A DNA stretch of 64,000 nt from Telluria sp. (lineage in GTDB: Bacteria > Pseudomonadota > Gammaproteobacteria > Burkholderiales > Burkholderiaceae_D): assembly GCA_049301315.1 (NCBI GenBank), contig JBAQKU010000373.1:3787-67786 (forward strand), in the 5' to 3' direction. Made by a program: the position numbers and the translations under genes. The notes under the pieces are model-generated. The model was given only the letters and a program-made list of their open reading frames with translations. It had not been told where the DNA came from and did not search any database. Positions 25,894-26,937 of this stretch are shown one piece after another (the stretch's first letter is position 1; the number at the start of each line of letters is the position of its first letter).

Positions 25894-25980
25894 ATCTAAC
25901 GTAGAGCTAACCGGCGCTGCGCAGCTTTATCGCGCAGCGGCCAGCGACCGAAGGGAGCGAGGTTCAGCGCCATGTTAGAT
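25894..25980 (-). repeat. attC site (87 nt)
   Basis: The minus strand reads ATCTAAC-ATGGC-GCTGAACC-(48 nt)-GGTTAGC-TCTAC-GTTAGAT, with one bulged base in the ORF-proximal L box. The TAA stop of the 320-aa ORF lies inside the RYYYAAC box. Confidence 0.8.
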
Positions 25981-26937
25981 TTCGTGTTCACCGCTTGGAT
26001 TTCTGTTGGTCAGCCCGATCAGGCGCTTAGTAAGCTTTCCGCGGAGATCTCGTAAGTTGTCATAGTCGGGGCAATTGTAGCCAGCAAGGTCAAAGTGAAG
26101 GCCCGTGCCGGACTTGCGAAATAGAATCACGCGCTTGCCAAGAGCATGAGCAAAACCAACCTCATAGTAGACGTTTGGTCTTGCCCCAGTCAGATCGGCG
26201 AATAGGAATTCAGAAGTGTGGATTTCAGAGAGAATTCTGTCCGTGATAAGGCCCTCGTGTTCGATATCGTCGGCCCGCAAGGCCTTAATACCAAAGCACG
26301 AAAATACTGATTTCACCGTATCCGCAACGTCAGTAAGCTCAGGAAGTTTTTGATCCATCCACATCATGATGAATGCCGTGCCTGCACGGTACTTAGTAGG
26401 CGCTACGGTTGTACCAGACGGCAGCATAGCCGCTTCGAACTCCCTTCCCGATTCGACTAGCTTTAGTACAGTGCGGAGTTTGGATAGACCGTCAAAAAAG
26501 ACTTTTTCGGCCTCTATGGGTACTAAGCCAAGTCTCTCGGATTGTTCTGCTGGTCGGAACCCGAGAACTCTGTCCTCGTCATGTATTACGTGGGGTTCTT
26601 GATACTGATAGCGTCTTAGTAGAAGGGCCGCCCGCATGGCTTTCGCGGCATTCTTCACATCCTGCACATCTTCATTTCCAGTAAGGGGCGCCGCTTTCGC
26701 AACTTGCGCAACTTGAGCGGCAATACGCAGTAGGCGATCAGAGATGCCGTTAGCAATGTCTTTCGTGGGATTGGCAAGTAGCTCCCAAAGGTCGGCAACC
26801 TCGTAATCTATGCCCCACCCAAAAGGGCCTTGCTTTGCATGTGGCTCACACTCAACCTTCGCTTGGCGGAAGTAGCCTTCTGCATCGCCTGCGATTGAGG
26901 CAACTTCGGCGGAAACGTCTAGATGTTCGGTCGCCAT
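25975..26937 (-). CDS. Hypothetical cassette protein: helical N-terminal half + TIR/NDT-like Rossmannoid C-terminal module
   Basis: 320 aa. The C-terminal AFIMMWMD...[43 protein letters not shown] aligns by eye with the middle module of the 554-aa SIR2 protein. Confidence 0.6.
   Translation of the reverse strand: [320 protein letters not shown]

Follow-up and report, generated by a model that had tools for sequence, protein, structure and literature searches.

Two neighbouring genes in a 64,000-nucleotide stretch of Telluria sp. DNA (contig JBAQKU010000373.1; hereafter the window) raise the question of whether two adjacent cassettes that encode the same type of domain also work together. The first is an open reading frame (ORF) for a protein of 320 amino acids (aa) at 25975-26937 on the minus strand, with an ATG start and the stop codon included, which forms the coding part of one integron-type cassette. 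The second, 99 bases downstream on the same strand, is the 554-aa ORF of the neighbouring cassette (24211-25875, minus strand), whose product contains a SIR2 domain (residues 1-276), a TIR-like module (~296-405) and a HEPN domain (~411-545). An earlier, sequence-only reading had placed the 320-aa ORF correctly, and all the peptide strings that it quoted are present. It had proposed that the two genes could be a functional pair (signal maker or sponge plus effector), paralogous stand-alone sensors or a decoy, with independence as the null hypothesis. We consider it probable that they are two independent single-gene integron cassettes, part of a three-attC cluster in a defence-rich region of an IncP-like element, that the shared module reflects distant common inheritance, and that the 320-aa protein is a sensor-effector.

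Each gene has its own attC-like site, as had been suggested. The site closing the 320-aa cassette (25894-25980, minus strand; ATCTAAC ... GTTAGAT) forms a hairpin of -37 kcal/mol, and the stop codon of the 320-aa gene lies inside its R'' box (ATCTAAC), with GTTAGAT as the R' box. The 5' boundary of this cassette is the site of a preceding 102-aa cassette (~26960-27020, minus strand; GCCCAAC ... GTTAAAT), which was read directly from the sequence. A hairpin scan found the site that closes the 554-aa cassette (24203-24260, minus strand; ATCTAAC ... GTTAAAT). The arrangement, single ORFs bounded by R'' and R' boxes (RYYYAAC ... GTTRRRY) together with an imperfect hairpin, is that of integron cassettes. 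Neither an integron integrase nor an association of an integrase with attI was found in the window. Its tyrosine recombinases, at 12308-13543 (minus strand) and 14665-15735 (plus strand), score 30 and 22 bits against the TIGR02249 cut-off of 265 bits. Since neither is IntI, the three attC sites form an integrase-less, CALIN-like cluster on a conjugative element.

The same layout recurs elsewhere. In Parasulfuritortus, a 320-aa cassette with 86% identity is second in line from an integron integrase and likewise has its stop codon in the R'' box, with no SIR2 gene nearby; a homologous cassette adjoins an integron integrase gene at L003/L004. A hairpin directly follows the stop codon at 10 of 36 loci of the 320-aa family and 16 of 75 loci of the 554-aa family, compared with 20 of 444 random control windows, as judged by a relaxed and crude attC detector with a false-positive rate of 4.5%. 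Because these frequencies exceed the control, both genes can be said to recur as cassettes. With an attC between them, each gene is predicted to move separately.

Using 83 loci around genes of the 320-aa family and 80 metagenomic loci around genes of the 554-aa family, each covering 10 kb on either side of the anchor gene, we determined whether the two co-occur. A tblastn search with the 554-aa protein found it at 0 of the 83 loci, and hidden Markov models (HMMs) of its three domains gave only one marginal match there (E 0.004), to the module of the L041 anchor gene itself. Conversely, the N-terminal domain of the 320-aa protein, or a protein of its type, was present at 0 of the 80 loci. Unbiased clustering of neighbouring ORFs returned no conserved partner for either family (37 loci for the 320-aa family, 75 for the 554-aa family), and the commonest neighbours were integrases (4/37 and 7/75 loci, respectively). 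The closest relatives of each gene lie among unrelated cassettes without the partner gene; the SIR2 genes concerned are 96% and 90% identical and the 320-aa genes 85-86%. Obligate pairing of the two genes is ruled out by this survey. The earlier proposals of a functional pair or decoy are not supported, since homologues of the two genes occur together at none of the 83 and 80 loci and neither family has a conserved partner. The null hypothesis of independence, in contrast, is supported by the absent co-occurrence, the separate attC sites and the lack of a conserved neighbour.

A more specific form of pairing would be a Thoeris-like system spread over two cassettes. Here, the 320-aa protein would make an NAD-derived signal, as ThsB does, and the middle module of the 554-aa protein would sense it and switch on SIR2 and/or HEPN. 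Like ThsA, the 554-aa protein has a ThsA-type SIR2 domain (PADLOC E 2.5e-30; Foldseek match to ThsA, E 1.6e-13) followed by a Rossmann-like domain, which stands where SLOG would and is, like SLOG, of the TIR-DrHyd-SLOG class (PMC9503650). The adjacent gene, 99 bp away on the same strand, encodes a TIR/NDT-like protein, and one distant locus of the 554-aa family has a small TIR/NDT-like gene directly upstream. However, the ThsA profile match covers residues 6-225 only (profile positions 7-222 of 478) and so ends with SIR2, the middle module matches no SLOG family, and the protein carries an additional HEPN domain. The 320-aa protein does not match the ThsB profiles in PADLOC at E <= 0.1. In addition, the invariant Glu366 of the supposed sensor module suggests catalysis over pure binding. 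The genes form two separate cassettes with an attC between them, hence separate movement, and they do not co-occur in the 163 loci; the closest relatives of each lack the other, and neither family has a conserved neighbour. We rejected a functional pair, Thoeris-like or otherwise, on the absent co-occurrence, the missing conserved partner and the differing contexts of the closest relatives, and regard the Thoeris-like arrangement as very unlikely. A pair would represent a new way to build immune signalling, split over independently mobile cassettes, and the evidence argues against it.

Two of the 80 loci of the 554-aa family, L116 and L130, hold another TIR/NDT-like protein that is different from the 320-aa protein. 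In L116, a low-GC metagenomic contig, a small TIR/NDT-like ORF (371-841) lies 47 bp upstream of the SIR2 gene (888-2534). L130 contains a near-identical SIR2 gene (9968-11614) without this upstream gene and with different neighbours. Its own TIR/NDT-like protein, of 313 aa with the module at the C-terminus (15381-16322), is encoded 3.8 kb away behind a 1112-aa ATPase-like gene. We rejected both loci as exceptions to independence, since they encode different TIR/NDT-like proteins whose presence varies between near-identical SIR2 genes.

Facultative cross-talk would take a looser form, in which the two modules hetero-oligomerise or a nucleotide product of the 320-aa enzyme acts on the middle module of the SIR2-HEPN protein. 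We judge this highly improbable. If it were true, single-gene cassettes would be shuffled by integrons into "mix-and-match" pairs for immune signalling. A promoter and terminator scan of 23600-28900 returned sites no more frequent than in shuffled sequence, and is therefore silent on co-transcription of the two genes.

The independent cassettes nonetheless encode related modules, and here the sequence-only reading, which had aligned the C-terminal part of the 320-aa protein with the middle of the 554-aa protein, agrees with the profile comparisons. In pairwise BLASTP the two proteins shared 30% identity across 54 aa (E 0.003). Profiles of the two families, made from 111 and 104 homologues, matched with 96.6% probability (E 6e-10, 79 columns) and 93.8% in the reciprocal direction, and hhalign of the full-length family alignments returned a single match, residues 208-290 against 316-400, with 90.4% probability and an E-value of 1.4e-6. 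Controls reached at most 2% probability when the 320 module was compared with the SIR2 or HEPN parts and when the 320 N-terminus was compared with all three parts of the 554-aa protein; 20 column-shuffled profiles reached at most 1.4%. Both modules match phrog_3634 and phrog_10872 over equivalent profile positions, and the HMM of the 320 module directly detects the middle modules of several members of the 554-aa family. The aligned motif pairs are D248/D357, P254-N255/P362-N363, E259/E366 and F282-D283/F392-D393, and these segments follow the same beta-alpha order in both AlphaFold2 models. Chance or compositional similarity between unrelated alpha/beta domains might have been read from the marginal pairwise BLASTP match and from module profiles that come from fairly close homologues (effective number of sequences, Neff, 1.7-4.5). 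We rejected it on the domain and shuffle controls, which stay at or below 2% where the reciprocal profile matches reach 90-97%. The shared PHROG families, the direct HMM matches across families, the common motif positions and the shared order of secondary structure also speak against it and make it extremely unlikely.

The C-terminal ~130 aa of the 320-aa protein are thus homologous to residues ~296-405 of the 554-aa protein, but distantly so. The two modules are 24-30% identical, and each is about as similar to established TIR/NDT families (NDT, nucleoside 2-deoxyribosyltransferase) as to the other. Both probably belong, as divergent members, to the Rossmann-like domains that Burroughs and Aravind have described as the TIR-DrHyd(NDT)-SLOG class (PMC9503650). 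Of the idea of paralogous stand-alone sensors, the common superfamily stands, and recent paralogy does not, given the low identity and a separate architecture for each protein. The module had also been called rare, which does not hold: the 320-aa protein has 1308 full-length-type homologues, the 554-type module is found in 846 representatives, and the TIR/NDT class is very large. TIR/NDT/SLOG-class nucleotide-processing domains are used repeatedly in bacterial immunity. A separate 329-aa protein, P0378, apparently contains two tandem TIR-like modules, and the 554-type and 320-type HMMs each match it twice.

A Telluria sp. metagenome-assembled genome (MAG) encodes a hypothetical protein that is 100% identical to the 320-aa product. 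The C-terminal TIR/NDT-like Rossmann module of the 320-aa product spans residues 184-312 (26002-26388, minus strand). In the AlphaFold2 model, beta-alpha repeats over residues 184-310 form the flavodoxin-like fold of NDT and DNPH1. The best Foldseek matches are NDT and DNPH1 structures (8qc0, 9i9q, 8rps and 4fyh; probability 1.0, target template-modelling (TM) scores 0.5-0.71), with the SARM1 TIR domain ranked under them, and a viral structure library returned NDT and CMP hydrolase. In profile alignments with PDB sequences, E259 (codon 26161-26163), within the motif ADL..(x)5..YYE.G.A.A.GK.VI, coincides with the catalytic glutamates of DNPH1 (in GYELG) and of NDT (at the equivalent position). 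E259, D248, N255, F282 and D283 are invariant among 66 family sequences, as are ~50 further positions. Among sequence families, Pfam Nuc_deoxyrib_tr (PF05014) matches with an E-value of 8.8e-5 (23.1 bits, gathering cut-off 28.8) and CAP12-PCTIR_TIR (PF10137) with 1.8e-3 (18.7 bits, cut-off 24.7). Most homologues in the 320-aa family carry a precomputed PF05014 match, and relatives with other N-termini score 20-26 bits. The best match in the defence database is the PADLOC CBASS "Effector TIR" profile PDLC00733, at E 7.8e-11 over residues 187-312.

These matches would also fit a metabolic NDT or dNMP N-hydrolase that serves nucleoside salvage and has no conflict role. The best fold and sequence matches are indeed to NDT and DNPH1 (Rcl), and the catalytic Glu is retained. 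However, the PF05014 score lies below the cut-off, the TIR-effector defence profile matches better than the NDT profile, and the family has a C-terminal motif of its own (10 residues). Compared with NDT and DNPH1, the 320-aa protein has an additional N-terminal domain of 180 aa, which differs from homologue to homologue, and its activity is a prediction. It has a patchy, horizontally mobile distribution, being encoded in integron cassettes and defence islands and not in salvage operons. A purely metabolic role is therefore very improbable.

The match to PDLC00733, and the weak match of both modules to PF10137, suggest a likeness to the TIR effectors of CBASS and Pycsar (CAP12/PycTIR). Those systems differ in that the 320-aa gene has no signal-producing gene as a conserved neighbour, and its N-terminus matches no SAVED, STING or cNMP-binding family. 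We rejected a CBASS or Pycsar effector because no CD-NTase or pyrimidine cyclase was among the conserved neighbours (37 loci with flanks). The ORFs adjacent to both cassettes likewise gave no cyclase match in Pfam, NCBIfam or PADLOC.

We presume that the N-terminal region (residues 1-170; 26428-26937, minus strand) serves in sensing or regulation. In the AlphaFold2 model it consists of a bundle of helices, a four-strand beta-meander (108-137) and a long helix (140-170) that forms a stalk, with predicted local distance difference test (pLDDT) values mostly of 88-96. The sequence-only reading had described the first ~190 aa as helical and unrecognisable. They are indeed without a credible match in Pfam, NCBIfam, PADLOC, the PDB sequence profile or Foldseek, but the beta-meander means they are not helical throughout. 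The only family that covers residues 104-308 is phrog_16139.

Across 80 species genomes, the 320-type C-terminal modules are 44-66% identical and are partnered with at least four unrelated N-terminal families (38, 22, 9 and 2 members, plus singletons). The N-terminus of the 320-aa protein sits on about half of these modules, and the other N-termini, of at least three families, are unrecognised by Pfam. This combination of a constant C-terminal module and exchangeable N-termini resembles the usual pattern of a fixed effector combined with changing sensors. For fusions that join variable N-terminal domains to NDT, a function as Abi-type toxins has been predicted (Anantharaman et al. 2013, PMC3710099). 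Like the AbiJ-NTD1-NDT fusions among them, the 320-aa family joins a variable, mostly helical N-terminus to a constant effector domain, although no Pfam AbiJ-NTD model matches the 320-aa N-terminus.

The same domain swapping bears on a possible counter-defence function, in which the 320-aa protein would be a signal-degrading enzyme or a sponge that aids plasmid establishment against the immune signalling nucleotides of the recipient. The gene does lie on an IncP-like transfer backbone, its domain class has members that bind or process nucleotide signals (PMC9503650), and PHROG families with the 320-type module occur in (pro)phage genomes. Known sponges, however, are small and single-domain, whereas the homologues here have exchanged the 180-aa N-terminal domain, as sensor-effector immune proteins do. 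The same gene is also found in chromosomal integrons and in Tn7-like elements beside defence genes, and is thus not specific to plasmids or leading regions. The strictly conserved catalytic-type site speaks against a passive sponge, though not against a signal-degrading enzyme. Overall, we consider counter-defence unlikely by a wide measure.

The 320-aa protein is instead probably a sensor plus N-glycosidase effector that depletes NAD+ or nucleotides. In this model of a stand-alone cassette gene, the N-terminal bundle, beta-meander and stalk would sense infection or a phage cue, or hold the enzyme inactive. Activation would probably proceed via oligomerisation, as in NDTs, TIR NADases, retron Ec86 and Swarozyc. 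The activated C-terminal domain could then use E259 to cleave the N-glycosidic bond of NAD+ or of an adenine or deoxy nucleotide, and depletion of this substrate would abort phage replication. The 554-aa protein would act alone, its middle module probably being a regulatory, oligomerising or second catalytic unit.

Depletion of adenine nucleotides or NAD+ by NDT-like and TIR-like effectors is known from retron Ec86 (10.1101/2023.08.16.553469) and Swarozyc/DUF4062 (10.64898/2026.05.01.722283). In retron Ec86 (Retron-Eco1), the effector of abortive infection is an NDT-like domain; it depletes nucleotides that contain adenine and requires dimerisation or assembly for this (10.1101/2023.08.16.553469). 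We predict an effector role for the NDT-like domain of the 320-aa protein as well. The NDT-like domain is N-terminal in the Ec86 effector and C-terminal in the 320-aa protein, and no reverse transcriptase or noncoding RNA lies near the 320-aa gene. Swarozyc, like the 320-aa protein, unites in a single chain a stalk of helices, an auxiliary domain and a TIR-like NADase that depends on Glu (10.64898/2026.05.01.722283), NADase activity in the 320-aa protein being predicted. The domain order is reversed, however, and the 320-aa protein has no DUF4062 match. Taken by its domains, the 320-aa protein would be an uncharacterised TIR/NDT-type effector with a variable N-terminus, carried as an integron cassette and of a kind already known.

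Several points weigh against our reading of two independent cassettes with a sensor-effector in the first. The small TIR/NDT-like gene at L116 stands directly upstream of its SIR2 gene, and the co-occurrence survey reached 10 kb to either side of each anchor, so unlinked genes may interact in trans. For the fold assignment, both Pfam matches of the 320-aa protein, to NDT and to the CAP12/PycTIR TIR family, are under their gathering thresholds. The C-terminal part of its AlphaFold2 model has moderate pLDDT values (66-90), and the predicted TM score (pTM) of the whole chain is 0.52. Foldseek E-values for the model are weak, ~3e-3, because only 40% of the chain aligns. Finally, the phage-defence role, the substrate and the trigger of both families are predictions, as is the oligomerisation of the 320-aa protein.

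The 554-aa neighbour is arguably the more unusual of the two proteins. Its 1504 homologues are ~550 aa each, and although this family of SIR2, TIR-like and HEPN domains has ~1500 members across many phyla, no PADLOC model is dedicated to it. The SIR2 domain matches Pfam SIR2_2 (E 7e-26), and Foldseek matches the model to DSR2 as well as to ThsA. Residues N113 and H153 of SIR2 are invariant in the family, and the NADase domain is predicted to be catalytically intact. The public gene call for this gene in the Telluria MAG (P0124) is 514 aa and starts at Met41. In the family alignment, invariant residues lie upstream of Met41 (P9, P11, L13, D15 and P23, as well as the NAD loop GAGFS at 26-30). 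This identifies 25875 as the real start of the 554-aa protein, and the deposited annotation truncates the N-terminus of the SIR2 domain (25756-25875).

The middle TIR-like module, the homologue of the 320 module, is encoded at 24661-24990 (minus strand), with the Glu366 codon at 24778-24780. E366 is invariant in 24 diverse family members. In the same 24, Pfam recognises the module as TIR_2 in 10 (best E 8e-4), CAP12-PCTIR_TIR in 6 (best E 1.5e-5) and NDT in 3, and a PDB sequence search with the module profile gave no match even at E 10. The 846 representatives matched by the module profile at E <= 1e-3 come from 1.84 billion representative proteins (50% clustering). The top 149 of these are all SIR2 plus module plus HEPN proteins or fragments thereof, and none is 320-like. 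The HEPN domain comprises ~135 C-terminal aa (residues ~411-545; 24241-24645, minus strand) with the Rx4H motif RNRIAH at 506-511. R506 and H511 are invariant in 69 sequences and region 411-545 is modelled as all-helical, in keeping with a HEPN domain; matches of the C-terminus to HepT are weak (E 0.013 in NCBIfam, 0.063 in Pfam). Literature searches on SIR2-HEPN, SIR2-TIR and TIR-HEPN fusions found nothing specific, nor did searches on NDT or TIR cassettes in papers on integrons and defence. As a separate observation, a 228-aa ORF family recurs beside SIR2 genes of the 554-aa family in 5 of 75 loci (for example L086, 4149-4832) and may be a frequently co-resident cassette. At L166 the SIR2 gene is likewise preceded by a gene of 228 aa, which may belong to this family.

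The two abundant, experimentally uncharacterised single-gene families, with ~1300 and ~1500 homologues, offer compact candidates for defence screens. One would combine an N-terminal sensor with a predicted NDT/TIR-like N-glycosidase whose module has recombined with at least four N-terminal domains, and the other carries three effector-type domains (SIR2, TIR-like and HEPN) in one chain. Whether the NDT-like module acts on NAD+ or on deoxynucleotides would help to show where TIR NADases end and NDT-type hydrolases begin in immunity. Integron cassettes are reservoirs of compact defence systems, as relayed in 10.64898/2026.03.17.712381 from Kieffer 2025, Darracq 2025 and Getz 2025. That both genes recur as cassettes agrees with the recent idea that integrons serve as libraries of small defence systems.

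The remainder of the window provides the setting. The third cassette carries the 102-aa ORF (27015-27323, minus strand) with its own attC, and the protein has no match in Pfam, NCBIfam, PADLOC or PHROGs. Around both genes lies an IncP-like conjugative backbone, with KorB, KfrC, ParA, TraI relaxase and TrbB, and a megablast search of 23700-27700 against plasmids returned no match. The surrounding accessory load includes Gabija (28837-31966), a second OLD/GajA-like ATPase, a type III restriction-modification system and an HKD-Snf2 helicase. The Gabija operon consists of GajA (28837-30540) and GajB (30533-31966). On either side of it are ORFs of 309 and 321 aa (27731-28660 and 32117-33082, both plus strand); they gave no significant family match and may be further defence genes or Gabija accessories.

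A second defence block occupies 232-11822 on the minus strand. It contains the OLD/GajA-like ATPase (232-2301), the type III restriction enzyme and methyltransferase (2409-7352), a 253-aa ORF without an assigned family (7349-8110), the HKD plus Snf2 helicase (8107-11301) and a small protein with a mad1-like segment (11304-11822). Between the two tyrosine recombinases and the KorB/KfrC plasmid genes lies a polymorphic-toxin pair (16964-19006, plus strand), in which a 471-aa DUF6861 plus Ntox15 toxin is followed by a 205-aa GAD-like/Tdi1 immunity protein.

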